From contig OZ245817.1 of assembly GCA_965228475.1 (NCBI GenBank), positions 1,344,001-1,408,000 of the forward strand: a DNA stretch of 64,000 bases. The letters are read 5' to 3'. Positions 41,080 to 54,574 of the stretch are shown here, in pieces. Below the pieces are notes generated by a model. That model was given only the letters and a program-made list of their open reading frames with translations, did not search any database and was not told the origin of the DNA. Both the position numbers and the translations under genes were made by a program. The stretch is from Myxococcota bacterium (GTDB taxonomy: Bacteria > Myxococcota_A > UBA9160 > JAFDDA01). Every line of letters begins with the position of its first letter. The first letter of the stretch is position 1.

Positions 41080-41595
41080 ATGGACGACCACGGGCCGAAG
41101 GTCCTCTTCCTCTGCACCGGGAACTCGGCGCGAAGCATCCTGGCCGAGGTGCTCCTGCGCGACCGGGCCGCCGGCCGGCTGCGGACCTGCAGCGCCGGGA
41201 GCCGGCCCGCGGGCCGCGTTCACCCGGAGGCGCTCGCCTGCCTCGAACGCCACGGGCACGCCACCGGCGGCCTGCGCAGCAAGAGCTGGGACGAATTCGC
41301 GGAGGGGGAGCCCGTCGACTTCGTGATCACGGTGTGCGGAAACGCCGCGGGCGAGACCTGTCCGGTGTGGCCCGGCCGGCCCCTCGGCGGACACTGGGGG
41401 CTTCCCGACCCTGCCGCGGCAGCGCCGGAAGAGCAGGGCGGCGCCTTCGAGCGGACCTACCGTGCCCTCGAAGCGCGCATCGACCGGTTCCTCGCCCTTC
41501 CGCTCGAAGCTCCGTCCGACCCCGCGGCCCTGAGGGTCGAAATCGAGAAGATCGGATCGCTCGAGCTCCCCGAGGGGGCGCCGGAAGGGGCCTAG
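41080..41595 (+). CDS. arsC: Arsenate reductase ArsC (LMW-PTP fold)
   Basis: VLFLCTGNSARS, SAGS, SKSWDEF, ITVC...ETCPVWPG, HWGLPDPA. Confidence 0.88.
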   Translation: MDDHGPKVLFLCTGNSARSILAEVLLRDRAAGRLRTCSAGSRPAGRVHPEALACLERHGHATGGLRSKSWDEFAEGEPVDFVITVCGNAAGETCPVWPGRPLGGHWGLPDPAAAAPEEQGGAFERTYRALEARIDRFLALPLEAPSDPAALRVEIEKIGSLELPEGAPEGA

Positions 41596-41963: not shown

Positions 41964-42929
41964 GTGATGAATCGTCCCTTCGCATACTTGGCTGCCCTGC
42001 TTGCGAGTGGGGTGCTGGTCGTCGCGGGCACCGCATCGGCCGGCAACTACTCCATTCCGCCGTCCGAGGCCGAGCGCCGCCTCGGAAGCGAGCCCTTCGA
42101 GATCCTCGAGGCCAAGCGCACCGCTTCGGGTGTCGCCGGCGCCCAGCGCTGGAAGCTGCGCTTCCAGGATGGGAAGGTCATCAAGGCGAAGTGGAAGGCC
42201 GCGCCGCGCTACGTGGCCGACGGCTGGAACAACTCCCCCCGCCGCGAGATGGCCGCCTACGAGATCCAGAAGTGGTTCCTCGACGAAGAGGACTACATCG
42301 TCCCGCCGTCGGAGGTGCGCTGCATCCCCCTGGCGCAGATGCAGGCGATCGATTCGAACGCCCGGCCGACCCTGCTGAACACGAACTGCGTCTACGGTGT
42401 GCTCTCGCTCTGGCTGCAGGACGTCGAGGAGCCCGCCGAGATCTGGCACCCGGACCTCTTCGCCCAGGGCGGCTACTACCGCTACTCGATCGCCGCCGTG
42501 GACGTGCTGACGCTCCTGATCGGCCACCAGGACGGCCGGCCCGCCAACTTCCTCTGGTCGAAGGACGACCGCCGCCAGGTCTTCTCGATCGACAACGGCA
42601 TCTCCTTCCACGCGTTCCCCTACAACTTCCTCGTGCGCAACTGGAACGACCTGCGCGTGCCCGCGCTCTCGCGCCGGGTGATCGAGCGGCTCGACCGCGT
42701 CGGACCCGAGAAGATCAAGGCCCTCGGCATCCTGCGGCACCTCGAGCCGGACGAGAACGGCGTCCTCCAGGTGACGGCGCCCGACGGCAACCACGGCCCG
42801 AGCAAGGGCACCCGGGTCCGTGGCAGCACGCTGCAGTTCGGCCTCAGCAAGAGCGAAGTTCGCGAGGTCGAGGAGCGCCTCGGCCTGATCCTGCGCCTGG
42901 CCGAGAGCGGTCAGATCGACCTCTTCTGA
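41964..42929 (+). CDS. Exported atypical protein-kinase-like enzyme (PI4K-II/FAM20/HipA-like fold)
   Basis: Sec signal (...AGTASA), KAKWK, REMAAY, VPP, LLIGHQDGRPANFL (DxxxxN), IDNG. Start GTG 41964 or ATG 41967. Confidence 0.7.
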   Translation: MMNRPFAYLAALLASGVLVVAGTASAGNYSIPPSEAERRLGSEPFEILEAKRTASGVAGAQRWKLRFQDGKVIKAKWKAAPRYVADGWNNSPRREMAAYEIQKWFLDEEDYIVPPSEVRCIPLAQMQAIDSNARPTLLNTNCVYGVLSLWLQDVEEPAEIWHPDLFAQGGYYRYSIAAVDVLTLLIGHQDGRPANFLWSKDDRRQVFSIDNGISFHAFPYNFLVRNWNDLRVPALSRRVIERLDRVGPEKIKALGILRHLEPDENGVLQVTAPDGNHGPSKGTRVRGSTLQFGLSKSEVREVEERLGLILRLAESGQIDLF

Positions 42930-42954
42930 GGCCCGCCCGCCCGGCCGGCGCCCC

Positions 42955-44328
42955 ATGAAACGAAGTCGCCTCGAGCGGGCTCTAGGGATCTTCACGGACG
43001 TTCGTCCGGGGGAAGGGCGCACCGCCCTCCTGATGTTCGCGAACGTCTTCCTGATCCTCTGCGCCTACTACTTCATCAAGCCCCTGCGCGACGGCTGGCT
43101 CGCCGGCGAGCAGATCGAAGGGTTCCAGGGGACGATCCGGGCGTACTCCTCCTTCGCCCAGGTCCTGATCCTGATCCCGGCGGTCTCGGCCTACGGCTGG
43201 CTGGCGCGGCGATACCGCGGCGCCGCCCTCATCACGCGCTCGACGATCTTCTGCATCGTCGTCCTGCTGCTCTTCTGGCTGATCTGGCCCGGCTTCCTGT
43301 TCGAGTTCCTGCCGGGCTCGGGCCTCGCCTTCTTCCTCTGGGTCGGCATCTTCAGCGTCTTCGTCGTGGCGCAGTTCTGGACCTTCGCGGCGGACCTCTA
43401 CAACGACGAACGGGGCCGGCGGCTGATGCCCCTCATCATGATCGGCGCGAACGCCGGCGGCGCCTTCGGGGCCGGGCTGCTCGGCCAGCTCGTCTCTGTC
43501 GAGGGCTTCCCGCAGCACGCGCTCCTGCTCGTCGCGATTCTCCCGCTTTCGGCGTCGATCTGGCTCTCGCGGCTGGCGGAGCGCCGCGGGGCGCTCGGAA
43601 CGGGCCTCGACCGGCCCGCGGCCACCCCGGCGGAGCGGGCCCAGAAGAAGCGCGGCTCCCTCGGGACGGTCTTCTCGGACCGCTTCCTGCTCGCCGTCGG
43701 CATGCTCACGATGCTCATGTTCTGGGTCATCTCGAACGGCGAAAACCTGCTCTGGCGCGTGATCCAGGAGGTCCTGGGCAACGAGGCCGCCCAGGCCGTG
43801 GCGAGCGAGGCCGGGCAGCGCGAATACATCCAGAAGGGAACCAGTCAGTTCTACAGCGGGTTCTATACGCAGGTGAACCTGGCGACGCTGCTCCTGCAGG
43901 GCTTCGTCGCGTCGCGGCTTCTGAAGTACGGAGGCTTCGCGACCATCCTGATGGCGCTGCCGGTGGTTTCCCTTCTCTCCTATGCGACCATGGCGCTCGT
44001 TCCCGCTCTCGCCATCGTGAAGCTGATGAAGATCGCCGAGAACTCGACCAACTACTCGCTGAACAACACCGCACGCCACGTCCTGTGGCTGCCGGCGACC
44101 GCCGAGATGCTCTACAAGGGCAAGCCGACGATCGACACGCTCTTCGTGCGCGCGGGGGACGGGCTCGCGGCCCTGACCATCTTCATCGGCATCCAGCAGC
44201 TCGCGCTGCCGACGACGACCCTGTTCTGGATGAACGCCGGGCTGGTCTTCGTCTGGCTCGGCGTGGCGTGGGGCGTGATCCGTCTGCATCGGCGCCTGGC
44301 GCGGGGAGCGCAAGCCGATGAAGCTTGA
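42955..44328 (+). CDS. Npt1/Npt2 (TLC/AAA) family nucleotide transporter
   Basis: DVRPGE, AYYFIKPLRD, QFWTFAADLY, YSLNNTAR, YKGKPTIDTLFVRAGD; about 12 TM segments. Confidence 0.88.
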   Translation: MKRSRLERALGIFTDVRPGEGRTALLMFANVFLILCAYYFIKPLRDGWLAGEQIEGFQGTIRAYSSFAQVLILIPAVSAYGWLARRYRGAALITRSTIFCIVVLLLFWLIWPGFLFEFLPGSGLAFFLWVGIFSVFVVAQFWTFAADLYNDERGRRLMPLIMIGANAGGAFGAGLLGQLVSVEGFPQHALLLVAILPLSASIWLSRLAERRGALGTGLDRPAATPAERAQKKRGSLGTVFSDRFLLAVGMLTMLMFWVISNGENLLWRVIQEVLGNEAAQAVASEAGQREYIQKGTSQFYSGFYTQVNLATLLLQGFVASRLLKYGGFATILMALPVVSLLSYATMALVPALAIVKLMKIAENSTNYSLNNTARHVLWLPATAEMLYKGKPTIDTLFVRAGDGLAALTIFIGIQQLALPTTTLFWMNAGLVFVWLGVAWGVIRLHRRLARGAQADEA

Positions 44329-45322
44329 CCGGCGCTCGTTCCTCGCGGGCATCGCCGCGGGCCTCGTCGCTCCTCGGGTCTTCGCAGACGATCCGGGTGG
44401 CCCGGAGTCGATCCCGATCCCCGGGCAGAAGGACGTCGAGGTCTTCTCGGACCCCGTCGTCGAGATGATGCGCCGGCTCGACGAGATCGCGCCCTTCGAG
44501 GACATGGCGCCCCTGTGGAGCTACAAGAGCGAACCCCTCCAGGGCGAGCTCGACAAGCTCCTCGAGCGGCTGGCGCTCGCAAAGCACGTCCGCTCGAAGA
44601 AGCTCGCCGTGGCCTTCGTCGACGTCACGGAGCTCAAAGCACCGCGGGTCGCCGAGGTGAACGGTGACCGCATGATGTACGCGGCGAGCCTGCCGAAGAT
44701 CGCGGTCCTGCTCGGAGCCTTCGAGAAGATCGCCGAAGGCCGCATGAAGCTCACCCGCGAGGTGCGCAGCAGCCTCACGCGCATGATCCGCGAATCGTCG
44801 AACGTCGCCGCGACCGAGATGATGCAGCGGGTGGGCAAGCAGTACATCGCCCGCGTGCTCTTGAACCCCCGCTACCGGCTCTACGACCCGAAGCACAACG
44901 GCGGCCTGTGGGTCGGGAAGGACTACGCGAAGTCCGGCCTCTGGCGCCGCGATCCGCTCCACAACTTCTCCCACGGCGCGACACCGATGCAGGTCGCTCG
45001 TTTCTACTACCTGCTCCAGACCGGAAACCTGGTGACGCCCGAGTACAGCCTGGAGATGAAGAAGATCCTCGGTCACTCGGCGATCAACCACAAATTCATC
45101 AAGGGCCTCCAGCTCGTGAACCCGCGCGCGATGACCTTCCGCAAGTCCGGGAGCTGGCGCGACTACCACTCGGACAGCGTGCTCGTCGAAGGGGGAGGGC
45201 GCGCGTACATCGCGGTCGCCCTGGCGAACCACCGCGAGGGCGGAAACTGGCTGCGGCAGCTGATCATCGGGTTCGACGAAATCATCTACCGCGGGTCGAA
45301 CCGGTGGAGGCGATTCTTGTAG
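44318..45322 (+). CDS. Tat-exported serine hydrolase, class A beta-lactamase/PBP fold
   Basis: Twin-arginine signal DRRSFL; SLPK (SxxK), SSN (SxN), KSG. Confidence 0.85.
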   Translation: MKLDRRSFLAGIAAGLVAPRVFADDPGGPESIPIPGQKDVEVFSDPVVEMMRRLDEIAPFEDMAPLWSYKSEPLQGELDKLLERLALAKHVRSKKLAVAFVDVTELKAPRVAEVNGDRMMYAASLPKIAVLLGAFEKIAEGRMKLTREVRSSLTRMIRESSNVAATEMMQRVGKQYIARVLLNPRYRLYDPKHNGGLWVGKDYAKSGLWRRDPLHNFSHGATPMQVARFYYLLQTGNLVTPEYSLEMKKILGHSAINHKFIKGLQLVNPRAMTFRKSGSWRDYHSDSVLVEGGGRAYIAVALANHREGGNWLRQLIIGFDEIIYRGSNRWRRFL

Positions 45323-45326
45323 CGCC

Positions 45327-45452
45327 GGGCGGCTGGAGGGCGGGAGGGGCTCCGGCTCATGGCTCGCCCTGGCTACCTGCCGAGTCGCCTAGACCATCCG
45401 AGTGCGGGCTGCGCTTTACTTCCCCGGAGCCCCTCCCGCCCTCCAGCCGCCC
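45327..45452 (+). repeat. Structured dispersed repeat, copy 1
   Basis: 67-nt core 45356-45422 inside a perfect 29-bp inverted repeat (45327-45355 / 45424-45452). Confidence 0.9.
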
Positions 45453-45495
45453 TCCTCGGCAAGGCGTCACGGCCGGAACGAACCCGCTCACGCAA

Positions 45496-45530
45496 AACAG
45501 GGATCGAGCGCAAAGCGCTCGATCCCTGTT
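45496..45530. terminator. Probable bidirectional terminator hairpin between convergent genes
   Basis: AACAGGGATCGAGCGC-AAA-GCGCTCGATCCCTGTT, a perfect 16-bp stem with short A/T flanks. Confidence 0.6.
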
Positions 45531-45571
45531 GTTTCACTCGCATGGCGGTGGTCCGCCGCGCCGCCTCGCAC

Positions 45572-45691
45572 CGCGGGTCGGGTCAGGGGGGCTTCAGCGA
45601 AGTAAAGCGCAGCCCGCACTCGGATGCGCCGGACGTCTCGGATGTTCGCCAGGGCGAGCCATGAGCGGAAGCCCCCCTGGCCCGACCCGCG
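45572..45691 (-). repeat. Structured dispersed repeat, copy 2 (inverted)
   Basis: Core 45599-45665 (reverse) inside a 24-bp inverted repeat with one mismatch. Confidence 0.9.
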
Positions 45692-45711
45692 CGCGCCGCC
45701 CCGACCTCGGA

Positions 45712-47091
45712 CTACTGCCCGAGCATCTCCTTCGCCTTCTTCCGCAGCTCCGGATCCGCCGCCATCGTCTTCAGTTTGGAGGCCATCTCCTGATCGTGGC
45801 GGTTCTGGATGAGGCGGTGGATGCGGGTGCCGAGGGTCTGGTGCTCGACGGCGGAGTTCTTGCGCAGGACGTTCGAGAGCACGACCGAGATGTAGTGGAG
45901 CGGCTGCTTCGAGTCCGTGGTCTCCACCACGGTCAGCGAGTTCATGAAGTTCTTGCGATTCCCCATGTACTTGCCGCACTCGAACCCCGGCTCCGGCTTG
46001 CAGCTGTAGAGCGAGCCGGACTTGAAGTAGAGGGCCGCGTCGGTGAGCGCGGGCGACGACGCGTAGCGGATGCGCCGGTCGGTCAGGTAGAGCAGGCGCT
46101 TGAGTTCGAGGCTCGACCACTCGTCGACGAGCTTGCCCTGCTCCATCAGCAGCGCGAAGCGGAGGAGCTCGCGCGGGGTGGCGATGCTGTTCGTGCCGGA
46201 GACCTTGTTCTTCCCGGTGCGGGTGAAGAAGCTGCCCTGGCGGAGCTTGCCCGTGTCGATGCCGTTGGCCTTGAGCGGGCCGCGGATCGCATCGAGGAAG
46301 ATCGTGCGCTTGCGCTTGGCCGGGGTCTCGCGGAAGAAGCGCGCGGCCTCCTCCGCCGTCGGCGGGTAGGCGTCTCCGTACTCCTTGAAGAGCATGACGT
46401 GCGCCATCAGCATGGCGGCGGCGGCGTTCGAGCTGCTCGAGCACATCCAGTCGAGATAGGTCCAGATGTTCGCGGTGTCGCCCTGGCGGATCGGGCGCTT
46501 CTCGAGCCGCTCCGCGCCCGGCTGCCAGAACGGAACGACGTGCTCGTCCTTGATGATGAACTCGTCGGCCGTGATCTGGACGTCGCGCAGGACTCGCTTG
46601 CGCGCCTCGATGTCGTCGGGGAAGCGGTCGGCCAGCGCCTGCATCCACGCCAGAGCGACGATGACCTTCCCGACCGAGCCCGGGTTCTGGATCTTGTCGC
46701 CGCCGACCTCGGCGTAGCTCGGGTTCGCGGGGTCCGTGATGTCGAGGACGGCGATGCCGTAGCGCGAGGCGTCGGCGTCGAGCAGCGCCTTCAGCTGCTT
46801 GGTGAATTCCGGGTCCGCGGCCGGAAGGGTGAAGTCCGGCCGGCTCGAGAGCTTCAGCCGGACGTCCTTGGTCGGCAGCAGCGCGCCGTCGAAGATGGCC
46901 CGGTTCTTCAGCAGGTGGTCCTGCGCCAACCGGTAGGCCTCGAGGCGGGTGATCCCGGTCTCGCGGTAGCCGTCGAGCGGATAGCCCGCGGCCGTACCCG
47001 CGATGGCAAGGGCGGCCACGCCGGCGAGTGCGCGGCGGCACCGGCCAGGGGCGAGGAAGGGCGAAGAGGAGAAGATCGAACGAGTCCGCAT
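45712..47091 (-). CDS. Exported serine hydrolase, class A beta-lactamase/PBP fold
   Basis: Signal peptide before YPLDGY; SVGK, SSN, KSG. Confidence 0.8.
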   Translation of the reverse strand: MRTRSIFSSSPFLAPGRCRRALAGVAALAIAGTAAGYPLDGYRETGITRLEAYRLAQDHLLKNRAIFDGALLPTKDVRLKLSSRPDFTLPAADPEFTKQLKALLDADASRYGIAVLDITDPANPSYAEVGGDKIQNPGSVGKVIVALAWMQALADRFPDDIEARKRVLRDVQITADEFIIKDEHVVPFWQPGAERLEKRPIRQGDTANIWTYLDWMCSSSSNAAAAMLMAHVMLFKEYGDAYPPTAEEAARFFRETPAKRKRTIFLDAIRGPLKANGIDTGKLRQGSFFTRTGKNKVSGTNSIATPRELLRFALLMEQGKLVDEWSSLELKRLLYLTDRRIRYASSPALTDAALYFKSGSLYSCKPEPGFECGKYMGNRKNFMNSLTVVETTDSKQPLHYISVVLSNVLRKNSAVEHQTLGTRIHRLIQNRHDQEMASKLKTMAADPELRKKAKEMLGQ

Positions 47092-47184
47092 GGGGCCTCC
47101 GCAGTGGGTCGGATGCTTTCGACGCAGGGGGAACGTACCAATTCAGCGGCGGGCGTCTTCGGCCGGGTTCCCAGGCTTCGAAGC

Positions 47185-50148
47185 TCAGTCCGCGGGGGCG
47201 CGGTCGAGCCGGATCTTGCGATTGCCCTTGCGGGCCAGCTCGGCGTCCAGGCCCGCCAGATAGCGGCTGCTCTTGGCGCCCTTGCTCTCCACGAAGGGCC
47301 GGATCTGGAGCAGGGTCAGGCGCCCGTCCTTGAAGGCGAACTCGACGTCGGCGGCCATGGGCTGGCCGTTCTCGTCCCGGAGCGAGGGAAAGCGCTTGGG
47401 GACGTCGCGCGCGAACCGGACGAGCTGGTCGATCTCGCCCTTCCGCAGCACGGCGGGCGTGCCGCTCGCGCGGACCCGGGTGACGCCGCCTTTCGGGTCG
47501 AGCACGGCCCGCCGCGGCGCCGTCGCCTGGGCGAGGAACTCGACCCGGCCGCTGCGGGTCTCGATGCGAAGCGACTCCGCCGCCTGCCCGTCGACGGCGC
47601 CGCCGACGCCCTCGTTCACGGCGACGGTGATGTAGTCCTGGCTGCCGCTGTCGACGTCGGCCGTGACCATCACGCCGGACTTCTCGGACGGAAAGCCGAG
47701 CTGGACGACGACGGCCGGGAAGACGTACTCGGGCTCTTCCATCTTGTCCTGCCGCCAGCCGTAGGCGCGCTCGGTGAAGGGCGAGGCCCAGACGAGGCCG
47801 ATCGATTCGAGGATGTTCTCGTAGCCGACCACGTTGGGGACCGTGAGGTTCAGGCCGGCCCCCGTGAAGCCCGGCAGATCCTCGACGTTCGTGTCGCTGC
47901 GGACGAACACGCCGTAGCTCCCGTCGCGTCCGAAGTGTTCTTCGAGCGTCTTGCGCAGCCCGTTGCGGAACTCGGGGCCGGGGTCGACGTCGTGGAGCCA
48001 GCCGCGCAGCCGCTTCAGGAACCTGCGCACCCGCTTGGCCTGGGCGGCCGGCTGGGCCTCGAGCTTGGCGATGGCCGCGTACTCGCCCTTCATCCAGTCG
48101 AAGACCGAGGGCCCGCCGGCCTCGAGGGGCTGGTCGAGGACCTTGCGGAAGGCGCCGAAGGGGATCACGAAGCCGTTCGGGACCTGATTCCCGAAGTGGT
48201 GCTTGAGCTCGCCGAGGTTCGCGCCCTTCGGGCCGGAGACGCGGCCCGAGTCCGCCGCGCGCAGGGCCGAGAGGGAGACGAAACCCGTCTGGGTGAGGTC
48301 GAGCTTCTCGAGGTCCGGGCGGATCACGAGGCCCGCGGAGGGCCCTTCCTTGCCGAAGATCTCGTTCCAGCGCGCCCCGTCGTCGGAGAAGTGGACCACG
48401 CCGCTCGGGCTCACGGCGAGCACGACCCGCTTGCCCATGCGCGTCCGCACTTCCTTCAGGTGCTCGTTGCCAATCACCACGTTCGGAATTCCGAGGTTGC
48501 GGGCCAGCAGCTGGACGTGCGAGAGCGAGCTGCCCTCGCCGCGGGTCAGGATGCCCGCGACGGGCGGAAGGTCCGAGATGGTCTCCGGCAGGAGGAAGAC
48601 GCCCTGGCGATCGAAGCCGCTCGCGCCGGCGTTCTCGGAGGGCTCGTAGAGGCGTCCGCGGACGAGCCCCGGGTTCAGCGCCCGGAGCCCCGCGCCGACG
48701 CGTTGACCGAAGAGTTCGTGCTCGATGCCCGCTTCGCGGTTGGCGTCCTTTACGAGGCTGTCGACGACGGCGCCGTAGAAGAGGAGCGGGCTGCCGCGCA
48801 GGCGGTCCTGGGCAAACAGATGGGTCTTCGGCTCGATGGCGGCGAAGCGCGCGGTCGCTTCGGAGAAGTGGAACTCGATCCAGCGCGAGCCCCACTCGGG
48901 CATGCGCGCGAGGAAGCGGAGTTCCTCGCGGTAGCGGTCGACGGTGGTGTCGTTGCTCTTGGTCAGCCGCTTGAGGCTCGCGACGACGCCCTCGCGGTGG
49001 CGCTCGGTGATGAAGCCCGCGCCGTAGAGCGCCGAGGTCCCCTCGCCGAGCCACGCGAGGCGTTCCTTGCGCGGAACGCCCGAGAGCCGCGCGATCAGGT
49101 CGTTGCCGACGGCGTAGGCCTCGCGCTCGAGCTCGAGGCTCGTGAGCAGGAGGGCCAGGGCCGCTTCGGGATCCTTCTCGTCGGGGAAGTGGCGGCGGAG
49201 CTGGGCCAGGGCCCGGCTCGCGATGCGCAGACGCTGGACGTCCTCGGCGCCGGGCGCCAGGAGCGCCGCGCCGTGGCGCAGGTTCTTCGCGAACTTCGCG
49301 TCCGAGGTGGCGGTGGCGAGGCGCTCGAGGGCGGCACTCGCCCGCGGCGCGTAGAGGGCGTCGATGTCGTCGGCGAGCTTCTGGTAGTCGGCGCGGGCCG
49401 CGGCCTTGCCCTTGGCCCGCGCATGGGCGCGCACGCGCTCCGCGTCGCCGGCATCGGGGAAGCCGTGGATCTTGGCGCGCAGGTTCTTGAAGCCCGGGTC
49501 CTTGTCCGCCACGACGACGGCCAGCTGCCGGACCGCCTGGGCCGAGACCGCGTCGCCGAGCAGGGGCAGGGCGCGGGCGGTCTCGCGGATCAGCAGGAAG
49601 CGGGCCGGATCGCGCCAGGCCGGGTCGGCCAGCATGGCGAGCAGGACTTCGCGGGCCGTCGCCTCTTCGTCCTCGGCCTGGAGCGCGCCGCGGTAGTTGC
49701 GCGCGCCGCGGAAGATCCAGCCCGTATCCGCAGCCCGCAGGAACTTCTCGACGATGACCTGGGAGAGCTGGTCGACGTCCGGATCCGAGCCGACGAAATC
49801 CTCGGGTTCGAGTTCGGCGACGACCGTTCCGACGTAGTAGCCGTCGGCCCGCATCGCCTTCACGCGGTCGTTCCACTCGCCGTGCTGGATGCCGCCGCCC
49901 CGCTCGCCGCCGCAGGGATACGGTCTGGGCGGGTGGATCGTGCCATCGGCGCAGAACCAGCGAATGCGCTTGAAGGGCCCCTTCGGGGAGCGCTTCATCT
50001 CCTTCACCCAGCCCGCGTAGCGCTCGGCGTTCTTGAAGCCCTTGCGCTTGGCGGCGGCCTCGGCGGAAGGGGCGGGGAAGAGCAGGGCCGGAGCCAGCAG
50101 GAGAGCCAGCACCAGCTTCGGGACCGACCGGCGGACGGGGCGCGACAT
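47185..50148 (-). CDS. Exported PEP-utiliser-family dikinase: signal peptide + helical N-domain + phospho-His swivel + PPDK-type ATP-grasp
   Basis: Signal MSRPVRRSVPKLVLALLLAPALLFPAPSAEA; GSSLSHVQLLARNLGIP (His swivel); GPKGANL, VRSDTNVEDLPGFTGAG, DVEFAF...LLQIRP (ATP-grasp). Confidence 0.85.
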   Translation of the reverse strand: MSRPVRRSVPKLVLALLLAPALLFPAPSAEAAAKRKGFKNAERYAGWVKEMKRSPKGPFKRIRWFCADGTIHPPRPYPCGGERGGGIQHGEWNDRVKAMRADGYYVGTVVAELEPEDFVGSDPDVDQLSQVIVEKFLRAADTGWIFRGARNYRGALQAEDEEATAREVLLAMLADPAWRDPARFLLIRETARALPLLGDAVSAQAVRQLAVVVADKDPGFKNLRAKIHGFPDAGDAERVRAHARAKGKAAARADYQKLADDIDALYAPRASAALERLATATSDAKFAKNLRHGAALLAPGAEDVQRLRIASRALAQLRRHFPDEKDPEAALALLLTSLELEREAYAVGNDLIARLSGVPRKERLAWLGEGTSALYGAGFITERHREGVVASLKRLTKSNDTTVDRYREELRFLARMPEWGSRWIEFHFSEATARFAAIEPKTHLFAQDRLRGSPLLFYGAVVDSLVKDANREAGIEHELFGQRVGAGLRALNPGLVRGRLYEPSENAGASGFDRQGVFLLPETISDLPPVAGILTRGEGSSLSHVQLLARNLGIPNVVIGNEHLKEVRTRMGKRVVLAVSPSGVVHFSDDGARWNEIFGKEGPSAGLVIRPDLEKLDLTQTGFVSLSALRAADSGRVSGPKGANLGELKHHFGNQVPNGFVIPFGAFRKVLDQPLEAGGPSVFDWMKGEYAAIAKLEAQPAAQAKRVRRFLKRLRGWLHDVDPGPEFRNGLRKTLEEHFGRDGSYGVFVRSDTNVEDLPGFTGAGLNLTVPNVVGYENILESIGLVWASPFTERAYGWRQDKMEEPEYVFPAVVVQLGFPSEKSGVMVTADVDSGSQDYITVAVNEGVGGAVDGQAAESLRIETRSGRVEFLAQATAPRRAVLDPKGGVTRVRASGTPAVLRKGEIDQLVRFARDVPKRFPSLRDENGQPMAADVEFAFKDGRLTLLQIRPFVESKGAKSSRYLAGLDAELARKGNRKIRLDRAPAD

Positions 50149-50264
50149 CAGGCGCAGCTTACCCGATAACCCGCCGTTTCGGGTGGCTTTCCCCTGGGCG
50201 CTCGGGCCCGCAGGGCGGGCGGGCTGCGGCACAGGGTAAGGGGTGGGACGCCCTGCGGGGTGAT

Positions 50265-53200
50265 ATGGTGCGTGCCGTCGCCATGTTGCAGCGCCTGGGG
50301 TTCGATCGGCACGAGAGCCGCGTGCTCGTGTGGGGAGCGATCACGCTCTTCCTCACGGGGTGGGCAGACGTTTCTCTGAAGAACGTCTCGGAAGCCTACT
50401 TCGTGAACAGCGTCGGACCCGAGCGGCTTCCCCTCGTGTTCCTCGCCAGTTCGGCCCTCCTGGTCGGGACGACGTGGGCTCTGGGCATCCTGATGGCTCG
50501 GAGCCAGCGGCTGCGTCTCCTGCCGCGCCTGCTCGGTGTGCTGGCCGTCGCGATCCTTCCCCTGTGGTGGCTGATCCTGAACCACGAGGGTGGAACGGAC
50601 CGCGAGATCAAGAGCGCCTACGGCCTGCTCCTGATCGCCTCGAAGCAGGTCCAGGCGCTGGCGCTCCTGTCGTTCTGGGCCGCCATCAACGATCTGGTGA
50701 ACGCCCGCCAGGCCAAGCGGGTGTTCGCTCCGCTGATGGCCGGCTGGACGCTGGGAACGATCCTCGGAAGCTTCGCATCGGATCCGCTCGCGGGCTGGCT
50801 GGGCGTTCCGGCGCTGGTCCCCGTCTCATCGGCAATGCTGATCCTCGCGGGCGTCGCGACCTATCCGCTCCGCCGCGGGCTGCCTACCCGGCTCCACGTC
50901 GGCACGCGACGACGCCTCCTCGACCTCGTGCGACCCAAGGAAGAGCGCTCGGTGTTCGGCGCGGGCGCGACGGGGTCGCCGGAGGCCGGAAGCGCCGAGG
51001 CCCCGGCGAGCGTGCGCGCGCTCTGGCGGGAGAGTGCCCTGTTCCGGCTGCTCTTCGTCACGGTGCTGCTGTCCGGGATGCTCGGCCCGATGCTCTATTT
51101 CCAGTTCCAGTGGGTCGCGGATGCGGCGACACCGGAAGGCGACGAGGGCCTGGAAGGCCTCCTCCATCTCTACTCGCTCTTCCGCGGCTGGGTGAACGTC
51201 GCCATCCTCGTCGCTCAGCTCACGGTCACCTCGACGCTCTACCGTCGTTTCGGAATCCCGCTGTCCGTCCTGATCTCGCCGCTCACCTATCTCGCCGGCT
51301 TCTTCGGGCTCTCCCGGAGCTTCGCGCTGCCGATGGGCATCGGTGCGATGTCGCTGACGAAGCTCCAGGACAACGCCGTCTTCGATCCGGCCTCCCGGGT
51401 GCTCTACAACCTCTTCCCGGACCGCCACCGGGCCCGTGCCGGGTCCTTCCTCGACGGCCCCGTGAAGCGGGGCGCCGGGGCGCTCGGCAACCTCGTGGTG
51501 ATCGTCGCACTCGAGGCCGCGTCCGTTGCCTACGTCGGCGTGGCCGGCATCGGCCTCGCGCTGATCTGGCTGCTCGCGGCGGTCGTGCTCTGGCAGACCT
51601 ATCCGCGCCTGCTGCTCGCGGCCGCGTCGAACCGCCGGACGTCGGGCGGCGAGTGGGAAGAGGGCATGCTCGACCCCTCGACGGTGCGCGCCCTGAACCC
51701 GCATCTGCTCGACCCCGACCCCGGGCGCTGTGCCCTGGCCATCGGCCTGCTCGAGGAGGCGCGCCCCGAGCTGGCGATCCCCGCGCTCGTGCACGCCTAC
51801 GGAGGGGCCCACGGGGCAACGCGCCCCCTCCTCCTCACGGCGCTCGAGGATGCGCTCGACAAGACGGTCACGACGCCGGTGCGCGACGCCGCGGCGGCCG
51901 CCGAGCTCGACCGGATTCTCGCCGAGACGCCGGATCTCCCGGCCCTCGACCGCTCCCGGCTCGTGCAGTGCTACGGCCGCGTGAGGCCGGAGGACGACCG
52001 CTCGCCGCTGCTCACCCACGCCCTCCACCACGAGGTCGCGAGCGTCCGCCTCGCCGCCGCGGGTGCCCTCGATCACGACGACCTCGACGACCGCCTGCGC
52101 GAGGCCGCGGCCAGCAGCGACCTCGCCGAACGCACCATCGCCCGCCGCGAGCTGCGCGCCGCGCTCCTGTGCGACGCCGAGGATCCGGCCTGGGAACAGC
52201 GGCTCGCGATGCTCGTCGCCATGCTCGACGACCCGGAGGAGCGCCGCCCCGCAGCGGAGGCCCTGGCCGACGTCGCGCGCCGCCACGGCGAGCGCGTCGT
52301 GCCGATCACCGAGGCCGTGCTCGAGCGGCGACACGAGACCGACGTCGCGACGCGCCGCGCGCTGCTGCGCTTCGCCGGCCACGCGGGCTGCGTCGAGCAC
52401 GCGGGCTGGCTGGTCGACCACCTCGCGTCGGACGACGAGTCCGAGGCCGATGCCGCCCGCGAAGGTCTGGTCGCCATGGGGGCCGGCATCACCGACATCC
52501 TGTTGAAGGAGGCGTCCCACGGCCGGCGCAGCAAGCGCGATGCGATCCTGCCGCTCCTGCGCGACCTCCACGTCGACCAGGACGAACTCTGGGAACTCTA
52601 CGAGCGCGAGCTCGCCGGCATCCGCAAGCTCATCGTCCAGCACCACGTGATGCGCGCGACGCCGGGCCTCGAGCTGCTCGAGCAGCGGCTCGACGAGCGC
52701 ATCGACGAAGGCCTGCACACGGCGCTCCTGCTGCTCGCCGGCCTGCGGGACCGGGACGAGTACGAGAGCCTCGCCGAGAGCCTCCCCGGCACGCCGAGCG
52801 GCCGGCGCCGGGCGACCCTGGTCGAGGTGCTCGAGGAGATCGCGACCGCCCGCGAAAAGACCGAGCTCCTGCCGTTGTTGGACGAGGATCTCGACAAGCG
52901 CTGCGCCCGGGCCGCCGGCGCGCTCGGCATCCTCGTCCCGAGCGACGAAGAGGTCCTCCAGCAGACCATGAAGAGCTCCGACGAGCTGACCCGCGTGCTG
53001 GTTGCCGGTTGCCTGCGGACGCTCGGCATGGGGCCCGTGCCCGGTGCGGCGCCCGGCGCAGTTCCATTGGCTCCCTCCGCCGATCTGGAGGAAACTGCGG
53101 ACGTGCTGAGCCCCACGGAGATCGCGCTGCAGCTCAAGGGTCTGCCCATGTTCGATGGGCTCACGACCCGGCAGCTCATGGACCTCGCCCAGGTGGTGAG

Positions 53201-53534
53201 CGAAGTGACCCATGCGCCCGACGCCACCGTCGTCAGCGAGGGCGGCATGAACGAGAGCATGTTCCTGATCGTGGACGGCAAGGTCGAGGTGCGGAAGCAG
53301 GGCCGGCGGGTCGCCGAGCTCGGCCCGGGCGAGTTCTTCGGGGAGATGTCGGTGCTCGAGCGCGCGCGCCCGAGCGCCGACGTGATCACCACGGAGACGG
53401 CGCGCCTGCTCTGCCTTCAGCGCGCGGATCTCTTCCGCCTGATGGAAGAGTTCCCGACCATCCCGATCATCATGTGCCAGACGCTCTCGCGCCGGATGCG
53501 CGAGCTGCTCGAGACGCGCTCCGAGCCTGCCTAG
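50265..53534 (+). CDS. Npt/TLC-family transporter fused to HEAT-like repeats and a C-terminal cyclic-nucleotide-binding domain
   Basis: About 12 TM segments with FWAAINDL...QAKRVF; helical repeat middle; FLIVDGKVEV...LGPGEFFGEMSVLERARPSADV (cNMP). Confidence 0.85.
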   Translation: MVRAVAMLQRLGFDRHESRVLVWGAITLFLTGWADVSLKNVSEAYFVNSVGPERLPLVFLASSALLVGTTWALGILMARSQRLRLLPRLLGVLAVAILPLWWLILNHEGGTDREIKSAYGLLLIASKQVQALALLSFWAAINDLVNARQAKRVFAPLMAGWTLGTILGSFASDPLAGWLGVPALVPVSSAMLILAGVATYPLRRGLPTRLHVGTRRRLLDLVRPKEERSVFGAGATGSPEAGSAEAPASVRALWRESALFRLLFVTVLLSGMLGPMLYFQFQWVADAATPEGDEGLEGLLHLYSLFRGWVNVAILVAQLTVTSTLYRRFGIPLSVLISPLTYLAGFFGLSRSFALPMGIGAMSLTKLQDNAVFDPASRVLYNLFPDRHRARAGSFLDGPVKRGAGALGNLVVIVALEAASVAYVGVAGIGLALIWLLAAVVLWQTYPRLLLAAASNRRTSGGEWEEGMLDPSTVRALNPHLLDPDPGRCALAIGLLEEARPELAIPALVHAYGGAHGATRPLLLTALEDALDKTVTTPVRDAAAAAELDRILAETPDLPALDRSRLVQCYGRVRPEDDRSPLLTHALHHEVASVRLAAAGALDHDDLDDRLREAAASSDLAERTIARRELRAALLCDAEDPAWEQRLAMLVAMLDDPEERRPAAEALADVARRHGERVVPITEAVLERRHETDVATRRALLRFAGHAGCVEHAGWLVDHLASDDESEADAAREGLVAMGAGITDILLKEASHGRRSKRDAILPLLRDLHVDQDELWELYERELAGIRKLIVQHHVMRATPGLELLEQRLDERIDEGLHTALLLLAGLRDRDEYESLAESLPGTPSGRRRATLVEVLEEIATAREKTELLPLLDEDLDKRCARAAGALGILVPSDEEVLQQTMKSSDELTRVLVAGCLRTLGMGPVPGAAPGAVPLAPSADLEETADVLSPTEIALQLKGLPMFDGLTTRQLMDLAQVVSEVTHAPDATVVSEGGMNESMFLIVDGKVEVRKQGRRVAELGPGEFFGEMSVLERARPSADVITTETARLLCLQRADLFRLMEEFPTIPIIMCQTLSRRMRELLETRSEPA

Positions 53535-53569: not shown

Positions 53570-54409
53570 TTAGTTGAGATTGATGACGGTGCCGGAACCG
53601 GTGTTACCACCCGGCGCGGGCGGGTCCGGATCGACGGTCGGGTCCACCGGGTCGAACTCCGGAATGAACGGATCCTCGAGCTCGTCGTCGTCGTACGGCT
53701 CGCCCGGATCGTTCCCCGGGTCGGTCGGATCGTTGCCGGTCGTCGAGGAAGAGTCCCCGCCGCCCGCCACGTCGTCGTCGAGGGGCTGATCGAAGTCGTC
53801 GCCGTTGCCGGCCTGGAAGGGGTCGGCCGGATTCCGGAACGGGTCGCCCGGCGCCTTGTCGCCGTAGGCGACGACGCAGAAGCCCGGGCGCGGCTCGGCG
53901 GTCCCGTACTCGTTCTTGACGACGATGCCGCCCGAGATCAGGCAGGCTTCCCACTCGCCGCTCGTGCTGCCCTTGCGCACCTCGAAGTCCGTGCCCTTCA
54001 CGCCGACGGCGGCGGTCGGGGTGTGCACCTCGATCTTGGTGCTTCCGCCGAAGGCGTCGCCCACGGTCGCGCGCAGGCGGCCCCGCACCTGACGCAGGAT
54101 CGAGACTTCCTTCGTGGCGGCGGCGCCGACGTGGAAGGTCTCGATGCGAAGCTCGGTGTCTTCGTCGATCTGGAGCAGGGTGTCGTCGGTGAGGACGATC
54201 TTGGCGCTCGAGTCGAGGCCCGTGCGGATCCGGTCGCCGATCGCGACGGAGCCGTCGCGCTGGGCGGCGGCGAACACGCCGGTGCCGTTGTCGATCTGGA
54301 CGTCGCCGTTGGCGGCGGCGAGGAAGCCGATGTCCTTCGCCGAGGCCAGGCCCGAGAGGCCGAGGGCCGCGGCGGCGATGAGGCTCGTAGCGAGAGAGTT
54401 GCGACGCAC
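53570..54409 (-). CDS. Exported FecR-domain protein with an acidic Pro/Asp-rich tail
   Basis: GTG start with a GGAGG RBS, signal peptide, GDRIRTG, TPTAAVGVKGTDF. Confidence 0.85.
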   Translation of the reverse strand: MRRNSLATSLIAAAALGLSGLASAKDIGFLAAANGDVQIDNGTGVFAAAQRDGSVAIGDRIRTGLDSSAKIVLTDDTLLQIDEDTELRIETFHVGAAATKEVSILRQVRGRLRATVGDAFGGSTKIEVHTPTAAVGVKGTDFEVRKGSTSGEWEACLISGGIVVKNEYGTAEPRPGFCVVAYGDKAPGDPFRNPADPFQAGNGDDFDQPLDDDVAGGGDSSSTTGNDPTDPGNDPGEPYDDDELEDPFIPEFDPVDPTVDPDPPAPGGNTGSGTVINLN

Positions 54410-54574
54410 GATGGTTCCTCCGGTCCGGCCTTCCTGGGCCGGGATGCTCACTCCGGCACGATCCATTGCCGGGTCTGTCGTTCGTGCACGTCCGACGCCG
54501 CGGGGTGTCACGAATTCAGGAAAGGGCCGATCCGTTGGCGTTTCGCCCCGGCAGGCCACCCGCAGCCGGCCTGC

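Follow-up and report, generated by a model that had tools for sequence, protein, structure and literature searches.

A conserved bacterial gene module linking predicted exported ATP-dependent enzymes to homologues of ATP/ADP carriers

The gene cluster

Six adjacent genes, here designated G1 to G6, lie between positions 41964 and 53534 of the window (the whole 64,000-nucleotide stretch of myxococcotal DNA analysed). The genes and the one intergenic region discussed below are as follows, with the evidence for each in brackets:

41964/41967..42929, plus strand: G1, predicted exported protein-kinase-like protein, 320 aa (AF2 model and Foldseek)
42955..44328, plus strand: G2, plain NTT/TLC-superfamily carrier, 457 aa (family profile match to 9j3n)
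44318..45322, plus strand: G3, predicted exported class-A-fold SxxK protein, 334 aa (Beta-lactamase2, 63 bits)
45712..47091, minus strand: G4, predicted exported class-A-fold SxxK protein, 459 aa (Beta-lactamase2, 24.9 bits; signal peptide)
47185..50148, minus strand: G5, predicted exported dikinase, 987 aa (signal peptide, PPDK_N and swivel domain)
50149..50264, no strand: divergent intergenic region common to G5 and G6
50265..53534, plus strand: G6, fusion of NTT-like, HEAT and cyclic-nucleotide-binding domains, 1089 aa (hhalign and Pfam)

All six genes described in the initial annotation are present, with identities that need only small corrections, and its account of their spacing holds: G1 and G2 are 25 bp apart, G2 runs 11 bp into G3, and ~116 bp separate the divergent G5 and G6. 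The arrangement requires one amendment, in that G4 and G5 stand apart as a minus-strand pair with G4 directly downstream of G5. No sigma-70-like consensus was found in the intergenic region between G5 and G6. GC3 is 0.91-0.95 in five of the ORFs and 0.82 in the long ORF containing G1.

The G5 dikinase

The domains of G5 are, in order, a signal peptide, a helical domain of ~470 amino acids, a swivel phospho-histidine domain (residues 548-589) and a C-terminal ATP-grasp (PPDK_N) domain (residues 667-988; both in the numbering of the 1015-aa ORF). The Pfam scores are 108 bits for PPDK_N and 24.6 bits for PEP-utilizers, and the ATP-grasp domain is closest to those of PEP synthases and rifampin phosphotransferases. 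In the rifampin phosphotransferase RPH-Lm, four mutagenised ATP-site residues (K22, R117, T136 and E297) and the phospho-histidine are reported to matter (PMC4844700); G5 residues K641, R750, T769 and E936 align to these four and H544 to RPH-Lm H825, and all five are invariant among 18 homologues. In silico, G5 can be identified as a predicted ATP-dependent His-swivel dikinase with its catalytic residues intact. The expected reaction turns ATP into AMP and Pi, with the beta-phosphate passing via His544 to an acceptor on the N-terminal domain.

The ATP-grasp and swivel domains are common to G5, PEP synthase, PPDK and rifampin phosphotransferase, whereas the signal peptide and the 470-aa helical domain, which has no PDB match, set G5 apart from the known His-swivel dikinases. 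Neither the PEP/pyruvate TIM-barrel nor the RIF-binding domain was detected in G5. In the sequence of its domains G5 is like glucan, water dikinase, in which an acceptor domain is followed by the histidine and then by a C-terminal ATP-grasp domain. To our knowledge, all known His-swivel dikinases act in the cytoplasm or the plastid stroma. The helical domain was modelled by AF2 with a pLDDT of 88.4, but a Foldseek search of the PDB with the model gave no match at E<=1e-3, and the best VIA Z score was only 7.8, on small bundles. We propose that this domain binds the acceptor and, judging from the model, it probably represents a novel fold.

G3 and G4, two SxxK proteins

Both G3 and G4 retain the motifs of the PBP-A/class A beta-lactamase family (SxxK, SxN and K(S/T)G) and match Beta-lactamase2, although the likeness to that family is weak and neither protein matched any NCBIfam beta-lactamase model. 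In G3 the motifs read SLPK, SSN and KSG; S124 and K127 are invariant among homologues, and S160-S161-N162 and K276-S277-G278 invariant or nearly so. The nearest solved relative of the G3 family, weakly matched by its profile (8.6e-7), is the DD-peptidase-like PBP-A protein Tll2115 (2j7v). In G4 the motifs are SVGK, SSN and KSG, and S139, K142, S220-S221-N222 and K357-S358-G359 are invariant. G4 gave no match to PDB sequences, and differs from PBP-A and the class A beta-lactamases in an extra C-terminal region of ~95 amino acids with conserved cysteines.

Predicted export signals

Signal peptides were called by a heuristic based on hydrophobicity and motif. By this measure, the export signals proposed for four of the proteins are family-wide: hydrophobic leaders with AXA-like sites are found in 37/38 G5 homologues (those of the 83 cluster members with an anchor-regex match and enough upstream sequence), 68/70 G3 homologues, 65/66 G4 homologues and 112/120 members of the G1 family. 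Nearly all homologues have basic residues ahead of the h-region and AXA-type sites of small residues after it, and the conserved mature sequence starts just past these sites (in G4, at YPLDGY). G5 and G1 each have an invariant cysteine pair (C66 and C79 in G5, C119 and C141 in G1), and in G4 C364 is invariant and C372 nearly so. The in silico evidence indicates that G5, G4, G3 and the accessory protein G1 carry conserved predicted signal peptides. The suggestion that G3 is a Tat substrate is borne out in this genome by a Tat-type leader (RRSFL) but does not extend to the family, only 7/70 homologues matching the Tat-type RR regex; the feature is lineage-specific.

The G2 and G6 carriers

As a single sequence, G2 has no PDB match and scores 19.3 bits against Pfam TLC, under the 21-bit threshold. 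TLC is, however, matched by 42/51 members of the G2 family, and the family profile aligns over its full length with the solved ADP,ATP carrier protein 1 (E 1.9e-25 with 9j3n, 2.3e-20 with 9j3j). For residues 13-456 of G6, hhalign shows homology with the G2 family (98.9%, E 1e-17). The proposal that both carriers are of the nucleotide-transporter type thus stands up well, and in silico we identify G2 and the N-terminal part of G6 as homologues of solved ATP/ADP carriers. A C-terminal Y-x-K-E...K-x-K-A-x-I-D-like block is common to the G2 family and the solved NTT/TLC carriers (PF03219, including plastid NTT1, Chlamydia Npt1 and Rickettsia Tlc1). G2 differs from these in its very divergent sequence, its free-living host with an ATP synthase of its own, its genomic tie to exported ATP-using enzymes and its proposed direction, which is export rather than import.

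The remainder of G6 includes a cNMP_binding domain (57 bits), and among 11 family members cNMP_binding is matched by 11/11 and HEAT_2 and MFS_1 each by 8/11. This is exactly the three-part NTT-HEAT-cNBD architecture of Major, Embley and Williams (2017), who reported NTT-HEAT and NTT-HEAT-cNBD fusions of unknown function in Deltaproteobacteria and discussed the regulation of ATP uptake (PMC5381601). The portion of their paper drawn on here describes no gene-neighbourhood link to exported enzymes, whereas the fusion found here is divergent from an exported dikinase gene.

The 5.0-Mb genome from which the window comes has only five NTT-like genes. The three outside the cluster adjoin genes for PGI, an AurF-like diiron protein and a Mo-oxidoreductase with CBS-GGDEF; since these neighbours are unrelated, the carrier family is not dedicated to exported kinases. 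The size of the genome and the presence in it of an F1 ATP synthase beta-subunit gene (825 bits) make energy parasitism unlikely.

Conservation of the module

The comparison set comprised 80 loci from other genomes, taken with 10-kb flanks that are complete in 42 of them. By record title, the G5 loci come from Myxococcota/'Deltaproteobacteria', Desulfobacterota (Desulfobacterales), several gammaproteobacterial families, Zetaproteobacteria (Mariprofundus) and Magnetococcales. The loci are drawn from related genomes and are not statistically independent; with that reservation, tblastn detected G5 in 80/80 loci, G4 in 75, G3 in 69, G2 in 47, G6 in 17 and G1 in 2, and each of the genes flanking the module in the window in 0-2. 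With the G2-family profile, an NTT-like gene was found in 62/80 loci and in 39/42 with full flanks, and none within 10 kb in the other three (L028, L058 and L073). A second, fused NTT-like gene (HEAT-cNMP or STAS) is present in 15/42 full-flank loci; in Gammaproteobacteria the position corresponding to G6 is occupied by an NTT-STAS fusion.

Gene order is variable. G5 and G4 overlap by 4 bp (stop to start) in 35/69 loci, and G6 is divergent from G5 in 15/81 clustered loci. A G2-family member is present in 60/81 clustered loci, adjoining G3 in 54 of the 60 (the two share a strand in 27 and lie on opposite strands in the other 27), and in some loci lies upstream of G5. Order and strand vary while the genes stay together, and the linkage therefore survives rearrangement.

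The conserved core of the module is thus four genes, G5, G4, G3 and G2, to which G1 is accessory, while G6 is lineage-specific. The initial annotation had treated all six as one unit, which holds for the core but not for G1 and G6; in other respects its interpretation is partly supported, by export signals, nucleotide-type carriers and co-localisation in other genomes, the last across phyla. The module is a syntenic set, 45-60% identical, and its hosts are free-living lineages from sediment and water that belong to several phyla. We found no published description of such a module in the literature.

G1 and a second association with NTT-like genes

G1 matches nothing in Pfam or NCBIfam. Its AF2 model (pLDDT 90.3) has as its top Foldseek match PI4KIIalpha (4hnd, E 1.3e-7), and it also matches Fam20C, Fam20A and Golgi casein kinase (TM ~0.5). 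Residues K75/K77, E94, D189, N194 and D209-N210-G211 are invariant in the family, as are the two cysteines noted above. The model suggests a PI4K type II/Fam20-like kinase fold for G1, which together with the signal-peptide-like N-terminus of G1 and the hydrophobic N-termini of its homologues agrees with the earlier assignment as an exported atypical kinase. An NTT-like gene directly adjoins the G1-family gene in 7/20 fetched loci, 5 of the 7 without the G5 module, and the NTTs concerned fall at two places on the NTT tree; for scale, the genome of the window has only the five NTT-like genes noted above. The adjacency of G1 and NTT genes is thus a second association, partly independent of the G5 module.

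A possible ATP supply to the periplasm

The periplasm is usually thought to be without ATP. The best explanation of the region, in our view, is a horizontally mobile envelope module whose enzymes act outside the cytoplasm. That its carriers exchange cytoplasmic ATP for spent nucleotide, and so power phosphotransfer outside the cytoplasm, we put at about an even chance. G2 would move cytoplasmic ATP out across the inner membrane and spent AMP or ADP (possibly with Pi) in; G6 would perform the same exchange, regulated by cyclic nucleotides via a HEAT-cNBD tail in the cytoplasm, a role that in Gammaproteobacteria would fall to the NTT-STAS fusion. G5 would phosphorylate an envelope or periplasmic substrate, and this substrate or its product would also be handled by the SxxK acyl-serine enzymes G4 and G3. 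G1 would be a second exported consumer of ATP on the same supply. Because the acceptor domain of G5 has no known fold, its substrate is a matter of guesswork; our guess is a peptidoglycan-derived or other envelope polymer.

There is a precedent among Gram-negative bacteria in Lig E, which the literature drawn on here describes as an ATP-dependent enzyme whose periplasmic leader is conserved. Its fold and substrate are unrelated to those of the module and no linked nucleotide carrier features in that description; moreover, Lig E can carry its AMP in the form of an enzyme-adenylate, but each dikinase turnover requires free ATP. In eukaryotes, the kinases of the secretory pathway are fed by ER/Golgi ATP importers (AXER/SLC35B1). 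The Fam20C/Golgi casein kinase system has, like G1, a kinase-fold enzyme behind a signal peptide, and common to both are a compartment without ATP synthesis and a dedicated ATP/ADP exchanger, in the case of the module a proposed one. G1 is, however, nearer to PI4K type II (4hnd) than to Fam20C or Golgi casein kinase, the carriers are unrelated (NTT/MFS-like in the module, SLC35 in the ER/Golgi) and the setting of the module is a bacterial one.

Several observations run counter to ATP export. Outer-membrane porins could leak periplasmic ATP, three full-flank loci have no NTT-like gene and the TLC score of G2 itself is sub-threshold. In addition, PamNTT1 is reported to prefer ATP import strongly, the opposite exchange being negligible (PMC1951785). 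For an NTT that exports ATP, the account available offers only speculation to date, concerning TlcA of 'Ca. Azoamicus' (PMC7969357).

The kinetic bias of PamNTT1, and the fact that all biochemically characterised NTTs in the literature drawn on import into a bacterium or plastid, would fit carriers that take up a nucleotide or nucleotide-like compound made or released by the exported enzymes, with no ATP export. Such a compound might be a nucleotide scavenged from outside the cell, or ATP that G5, working backwards, forms from AMP, Pi and a phosphorylated donor; PPDK-type dikinases are reported to be reversible (PMC5371819), and conserved linkage is compatible with any direction of transport. 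We nevertheless consider uptake unlikely: an intact ATP-grasp/His-swivel enzyme can run forward only with ATP on its own side of the membrane, extracellular supplies of a high-energy phosphate donor are not known, it is hard to see what SxxK hydrolases would do in nucleotide scavenging, and G1, whose kinase fold could only consume ATP, likewise adjoins NTT-like genes.

A different proposal concerns the substrate and is compatible with ATP supply by the carriers, namely that the module inactivates antibiotics in the periplasm, G5 phosphorylating a xenobiotic in the manner of rifampin phosphotransferase while G3 and G4 hydrolyse beta-lactam-like compounds. The similarity of the G5 ATP-grasp domain, the class-A beta-lactamase motifs of G3 and G4 and a nearby gene for a class-C-fold LipE-like protein (54575-55870) are in keeping with this. 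However, G5 has an unrelated helical fold as its acceptor domain in place of a RIF-binding domain, the LipE-like gene is present in 0/80 loci with the module (tblastn), the nearest solved relative of G3, weak as the match is, is DD-peptidase-like, and the retention of the syntenic set in free-living lineages of several phyla looks more like housekeeping envelope physiology. An antibiotic substrate therefore seems quite improbable to us.

Less probable again, and a slim prospect, is that the hydrophobic N-termini serve as membrane anchors, or that the heuristic behind the export calls has misled, with G5 (and G1) in the cytoplasm, phosphorylating there a substrate imported by the carriers. Such an arrangement would accord with a periplasm devoid of ATP, as commonly assumed. 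The organisation of the leaders in nearly all homologues, the start of the mature sequence right after them and the conserved cysteine pairs speak against it, as does the membership of the co-conserved G3 and G4 in a typically exported fold family; an N-in signal anchor, moreover, would still put most of the protein outside the cytoplasm. Mere chance proximity or shared regulation, without a common pathway, is very hard to credit: G1 and G6 accompany the core in only some loci, but the four core genes remain together in different phyla and despite rearrangements, while the genes flanking the module in the window are not co-conserved.

Returning to the envelope module supplied with ATP from the cytoplasm, the pairing of predicted exported ATP-using enzymes with homologues of ATP/ADP carriers, in a cluster conserved in several phyla, suggests that these bacteria may deliberately feed ATP into the periplasm.

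Organisation of the gene cluster

Third-position GC picks out six real genes within 41964-53534 of the window (GC ~70%), the host genome being a single contig of 5.0 Mb.

Genes of the cluster, as delimited by third-position GC
41964/41967-42929, + strand: G1, kinase-like protein
42955-44328, + strand: G2, nucleotide carrier-like protein
44318-45322, + strand: G3, SxxK protein
45712-47091, - strand: G4, SxxK protein
47185-50148, - strand: G5, dikinase
50265-53534, + strand: G6, fused carrier

Together with Pfam, this confirms the six adjacent genes of the initial annotation, and the Pfam results for each gene show its description of them to be correct, although the kinase label and those of both transporters called for closer testing. 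G1, G2 and G3 are indeed tightly packed, with a 25-bp gap between the first two and an 11-bp overlap between the second and third, whilst G5 and G4 form a minus-strand pair and the dikinase is, as described, divergent from the second transporter, G5 and G6 lying ~116 bp apart. A promoter/terminator scan returned no promoter-like sites and two terminator-like ones, fewer than the average of 4.2 in shuffled sequence, and is uninformative at 70% GC.

Elsewhere in the window, a complete rRNA operon (16S, two tRNAs, 23S, 5S) occupies 24009-29546 (+) and accounts for the dip in GC to 0.55-0.60 in that part. Just upstream of G1 is an LMWPc phosphotyrosine phosphatase/ArsC-like ORF (41215-41595, +) whose LMWPc match scores 29 bits on the 126-aa stretch tested. 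The region 53570-55870 (-) encodes a protein with a FecR domain, whose N-terminal segment is hydrophobic and whose tail is rich in Asp and Pro, followed by a LipE-like esterase of class-C beta-lactamase fold (370 bits against a cut-off of 750).

Conservation of the module

Four of the six genes (G5, G4, G3 and G2) form a module that recurs well beyond the window. Scanning a single genome from each species with a pattern identified 573 stretches encoding relatives of G5, the best 80 of which were analysed with 10-kb flanks. When these 80 loci were searched by tblastn with the window proteins, G5 was found in 80, G4 in 75, G3 in 69, G2 in 47, G6 in 17 and G1 in 2, and the genes flanking the cluster in the window (amidohydrolase, LMWPc, FecR, LipE-like, DUF4336, ECH) in 0-2; the LMWPc ORF is not conserved with the module (0/80 loci), nor are the FecR-domain and LipE-like genes conserved beside it elsewhere. 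All-against-all ORF clustering agreed with this: no families but these four were widely shared, and the remaining large clusters were antisense shadow ORFs of G5, G4, G3 and G2. Several neighbours in the 80 loci (ketopantoate hydroxymethyltransferase, an ABC ATPase, a TPR-zincin, peptidase M23 and a Fer4 protein) proved to be lineage-specific rather than co-conserved.

With an HMM of the G2 family, a gene resembling those of the NTT/TLC nucleotide transporter superfamily (NTT-like) was detected in 62 of the 80 loci. Full flanks, meaning 3.5 kb or more upstream and 5 kb or more downstream, were available for 42 loci, of which 39 have such a gene and three (L028, L058 and L073) do not. Co-localisation across genomes, which the initial annotation had named as a check on its proposal, is thus borne out. 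In 35 of 69 loci the G5 stop and the G4 start share a 4-bp overlap. G2 is directly adjacent to G3 in 54 of 60, with the two genes on the same strand in 27 and on opposite strands in 27, and is sometimes found upstream of G5. The record titles cover Myxococcota, Desulfobacterales, several gammaproteobacterial families, Mariprofundus and Magnetococcales, and linkage that outlasts rearrangement across these titles argues for shared function; the functional link between the module genes is a strong one. Within the phylum of the window, the N-terminal domain of G5 is present in 21 of 401 genomes, all of them in the window's own order, so that the wider spread of the module looks like the result of horizontal transfer.

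Myxococcota-type modules (55-60% identity) were also encountered under Nitrosopumilus, Opitutales or Spirochaetales MAG labels (L013, L006, L007, L010, L012 and L024). These labels are probably binning or naming errors and not the true hosts.

The dikinase G5

The G5 family (~980 aa) is conserved end to end, a search retrieving 719 proteins at E<=0.001 among 8000 candidates, the best 120 of which are 55-100% identical. Pfam reports a PEP-utilizers swivel domain (24.6 bits against a cut-off of 23.1) ahead of a PPDK_N ATP-grasp domain (108.4 bits). K641, R750, T769 and E936 of G5 align to K22, R117, T136 and E297 of the Listeria rifampin phosphotransferase RPH-Lm (5fbs numbering), and H544, in the motif SLSHVQLLARNLGIP, aligns to its phospho-carrier His825. 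All five G5 residues are invariant in 18 of 18 diverse homologues. Their RPH-Lm equivalents have been probed by mutagenesis or are named as catalytic in the accessible part of Stogios et al. (PMC4844700). G5 can on these grounds be assigned to the His-swivel dikinase/PEP-utilising enzyme superfamily, with the predicted catalytic residues of both domains in place.

Two more specific identities were considered and rejected. Pfam reports no PEP/pyruvate-binding TIM-barrel domain, as would be found in PEP synthase or PPDK proper, the order of the domains is the reverse of theirs (in G5 the His domain precedes the ATP-grasp) and G5 reaches ~100 bits with the NCBIfam models for PEP synthase, whose cut-offs are 598-740. 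The rifampin phosphotransferase model NF041857 gives G5 94 bits where 999 are required, and G5 lacks the central RIF-binding domain, its alignment to 5fbs/5hv1 covering the ATP-grasp and a weak swivel stretch only. The order seen in G5, from acceptor domain to His domain to C-terminal ATP-grasp, is presumably that of glucan, water dikinase.

Residues 41-512 of G5 are modelled confidently by AF2 as an all-helical domain (pLDDT 88.4, pTM 0.86). Foldseek gave no PDB match to this domain at E<=0.001, VIA-align (wide) gave generic small helical bundles only (best Z 7.8) and the named ESM Atlas clusters contained no usable match. Complex prediction for the N-terminal domain with mature G4, run without controls, returned 0.00 against a mark of 0.32 and speaks neither for nor against an interaction.

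The SxxK proteins G3 and G4

Both proteins match Pfam Beta-lactamase2, G3 with 63 bits and G4 with 24.9 bits. In G3, S124 and K127 are invariant and S160/S161/N162 and K276/S277/G278 are invariant or nearly so; in G4, S139/K142, S220/S221/N222 and K357/S358/G359 are all invariant. Both are therefore predicted to have the class A beta-lactamase/PBP-A fold with its SxxK, SxN and K(T/S)G motifs kept. The G3 profile weakly matches the cyanobacterial PBP-A Tll2115 (8.6e-7), the G4 profile has no match among PDB sequences and neither protein matched an NCBIfam beta-lactamase model. In two Mariprofundus MAGs (L051:5029-8485 and L067:6406-9785), the carrier gene has a G3-type SxxK gene on either side; the doubled G3 in these zetaproteobacterial copies is a local duplication.

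The carriers G2 and G6

G2 scores 19.3 bits against the 21-bit cut-off of Pfam TLC (PF03219). Searches with the single sequence found nothing in the PDB at E<=10 (phmmer) and no more than 16.7 bits in NCBIfam, so family profiles were needed. Among G2-family members from related loci, 42 of 51 match TLC at E<=0.01 (best E 3.1e-22), and the family profile aligns over positions 15-440 to residues 18-494 of 9j3n_A (E 1.9e-25), and also matches 9j3j_A (E 2.3e-20), both being solved structures of ADP,ATP carrier protein 1. Judged by profile, G2 is homologous over its full length to a solved ATP/ADP carrier. Residues K390, D394 and R399 of G2 are invariant and lie within a C-terminal block common to the solved carriers. 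In AtNTT1, adenine-nucleotide exchange is governed by K155, E245, E385 and K527.

In G6 itself, cNMP_binding is the only Pfam model to pass (57.2 bits), HEAT_2 reaching 14.8 bits. Across the G6 family, cNMP_binding is present in 11 of 11 members and HEAT_2 in 8 of 11, and the N-terminal part matches MFS_1 in 8 of 11 and TLC in 0 of 11. Residues 13-456 nevertheless align to the G2 family in hhalign with 98.9% probability (E 1e-17, 410 columns), and these results taken together identify G6 as a fusion of an NTT domain to HEAT and cyclic-nucleotide-binding (cNBD) domains. The transporter labels that the initial annotation gave G2 and G6 are upheld, as regards superfamily, by the 9j3n profile match and by hhalign, respectively. 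The NTT-HEAT-cNBD architecture was catalogued by Major et al. 2017 (PMC5381601), in the part of that paper available to us, as one whose function was then uncharacterised.

A second NTT-like gene encoding a long cytoplasmic tail is present in 15 of the 42 full-flank loci. The tail is of the HEAT-cNBD type in Myxococcota-type loci, and six loci, five of them labelled gammaproteobacterial, have a TLC+STAS protein. This NTT/TLC-like carrier with a C-terminal STAS domain (~830 aa) is seen at L029:16593-19094 and also in L059, L063, L074, L080 and L020. It lies just past the plain carrier in the gammaproteobacterial module copies and is the parallel there to the HEAT-cNBD fusion seen in Myxococcota. 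The accessible part of Major et al. 2017 (PMC5381601) makes no mention of an NTT-STAS fusion. In a quick, unrooted ML tree of 82 NTT domains, built without the truncated L107 copy and without ten cluster members whose length fell outside 400-520 aa, the plain carriers of the module form two well-supported clades, type A, which takes in the window, and type B, made up of Gamma-, Zeta- and Desulfobacterota loci.

The genome of the window encodes other NTT-like proteins. A second NTT-HEAT-cNBD fusion (G000:C1:4536748-4539816, L133:8748-11816; TLC 20.7, HEAT_2 60.6 and cNMP 74.4 bits) has a molybdopterin oxidoreductase gene on one side and a gene for a CBS-GGDEF diguanylate cyclase on the other. 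A divergent 555-aa NTT-like gene (G000:C1:3872802-3874469, L132:7803-9470), with a profile E of 1e-18 and no Pfam match, is found directly behind a gene for a ferritin-like diiron protein with weak AurF/RNR-small matches, and a Tat-exported PhoX phosphatase is encoded 4 kb upstream of it.

The kinase-fold protein G1

G1 has no Pfam match, PI3_PI4_kinase (PF00454) included. Its homologues are hypothetical proteins of 310-350 aa, few of which carry a precomputed PF00454 annotation, and an atlas search with G1 gave a single cluster named as PI4K family, at rank 30. The AF2 model (pLDDT 90.3, pTM 0.87) has 304 Foldseek matches in the PDB at E<=0.001, headed by PI4KIIalpha (4hnd; 1.3e-7, TMq 0.47) and Fam20C (5yh0; 4.5e-7, TMq 0.52), with Fam20A and Golgi casein kinase also matching at TM ~0.5. 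The model places G1 among bilobal kinase folds, in the PI3/PI4-kinase and Fam20 branch. Two motifs stand out, the catalytic-loop motif H187-x-D189-G-R-x-x-N194 and D209-N210-G211, which supplies the metal-binding Asp equivalent to that of DFG. In these, D189, N194, D209, N210 and G211 are invariant in 35 sequences, and 117 of 120 homologues have [IVL]DN[GSA]. We infer that the ATP-binding lysine is K75 or K77 and that the corresponding glutamate is E94.

G1 occurs with the module in the window and on the contigs of L008 and L018 only (L123 and L106 derive from these same contigs) and is accessory to it. The family is present in 18 of 401 genomes of the window's phylum and has a carrier association of its own. 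By G2-family profile, an NTT-like gene lies immediately beside G1 in 7 of 20 fetched G1-family loci, several of the other 13 being short or ending beside G1, and in 5 of these 7 (L107, L111, L115, L116 and L119) the fetched stretch contains no G5 module. These five loci (from genomes G039, G353, G283, G318 and G153, respectively) are two-gene units pairing an exported PI4KII/Fam20-like gene with a plain NTT-like carrier. A carrier with a long C-terminal tail is also found near G1 in L108, L111 and L119, lying no more than 5 kb away in the L111 and L119 units. On the NTT tree, the carriers next to G1 are split between two positions. By comparison, the whole 5.0-Mb genome of the window has five NTT-like genes. 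Since related genomes are non-independent samples, no P-value is given for the adjacency.

Export signals

Signal peptides were identified provisionally, by a heuristic (best Kyte-Doolittle window of at least 1.8) followed by inspection. Leaders were seen in 37 of the 38 G5 homologues examined, these being the members, of 83 in the cluster, with an anchor-motif match and enough upstream sequence; a 39th, short entry also shows one. The corresponding figures are 68/70 for G3, 65/66 for G4 and 112/120 for the G1 family. The leaders have basic residues ahead of the h-region and AXA-like sites behind it, and the conserved part of mature G4 begins immediately past the cleavage site, at YPLDGY. The initial annotation had G3 exported by Tat: a twin-arginine motif, RRSFL, is present in the window protein, but the RR regex matches only 7 of 70 homologues, indicating that the family is mostly Sec-type. 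Its exported kinase label for G1 is supported by the fold match of the AF2 model as well as by the leaders of the family. Cysteines are conserved as pairs in G5 and in G1, and G4 has two that are conserved, all of which fits an oxidising compartment. Sec/Tat export of G1, G3, G4 and G5 is provisionally predicted.

A possible role in periplasmic phosphorylation

In silico, then, homologues of ATP/ADP exchangers are kept beside three or four predicted exported proteins, of which two have the residues of the ATP site intact. The initial annotation proposed that the carriers export ATP to drive periplasmic phosphorylation, a proposal that is partly supported: the functional link is strong, whilst the outward direction of transport is putative, as is an envelope substrate. 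In the ATP-fuelled interpretation, some free-living diderms would energise the periplasm by NTT-mediated ATP export, through plain and gated carriers, to fuel exported phosphotransferases, in this case by way of a mobile four-gene module. We regard this as tentative, with a somewhat less than even chance of being right.

The carriers would swap cytoplasmic ATP for spent nucleotide, the products being AMP and Pi from the dikinase and ADP from the kinase, and this exchange, a costly one, would be gated in the cytoplasm by the fused HEAT-cNBD or STAS tails, placing the gated carrier under the control of a cyclic-nucleotide or STAS domain. The enzymes fuelled would be the PI4KII/Fam20-like kinases and a 'substrate, water dikinase' whose acceptor domain is new. 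G5 may hand the beta-phosphate via His544 to an acceptor held in the novel helical domain; G4, which would be translationally coupled to G5, may act together with G3 on the same substrate or its product, so that a phosphorylated envelope substrate would be processed by two SxxK enzymes. Energy parasitism is unlikely, given a free-living genome size and the capacity for ATP synthesis indicated by the genome's own atpD (825 bits).

Several observations count against ATP supply. Three full-flank loci have the module without a carrier, and ATP might leak out via porins. The idea that every NTT-like gene of the window's genome adjoins one for an exported ATP enzyme fails for the three outside the cluster, whose neighbours encode PGI and an aldose epimerase, an AurF-like protein, and a Mo-oxidoreductase with CBS-GGDEF. 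Export itself is at odds with PamNTT1, for which a preference for importing ATP, and next to no exchange the other way, has been described (PMC1951785). Outward delivery of ATP by an NTT appears in the portion available of a report on 'Ca. Azoamicus' (PMC7969357) as speculation only.

The components of the module all come from known superfamilies: NTT/TLC carriers, His-swivel dikinases, class-A-fold SxxK enzymes and PI4K/Fam20-like kinases. A full-text search taking in few of the subscription journals found no published description of the module, of an exported dikinase, its acceptor domain or a conserved pairing of exported ATP enzymes with NTT carriers, nor of NTT-mediated ATP supply to the periplasm. 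Two analogies come nearest. Eukaryotic secretory-pathway kinases work with a luminal ATP importer, an arrangement of which the module would be a bacterial counterpart. The other is Lig E, a periplasm-targeted ATP-dependent ligase, and the part of its literature available describes no linked nucleotide carrier.

The question is a testable one, as the genes are few and the predicted activities simple (ATP/AMP exchange and His autophosphorylation), and the cultivated genus Mariprofundus is, by record title, among the module-carrying MAG records. In the textbook view the periplasm is ATP-free, and envelope work is explained by the TonB, Lpt and Lol bridges and by phospholipid donors. If the ATP-supply reading holds, this view would have to be given up for several phyla, in which exported kinases would receive ATP by a conserved and regulated route. 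The NTT and NTT-HEAT-cNBD proteins of free-living bacteria, uncharacterised in 2017 (PMC5381601), would gain a function, dikinases would gain a new acceptor domain, and the existence of a phosphorylated envelope component would be implied.
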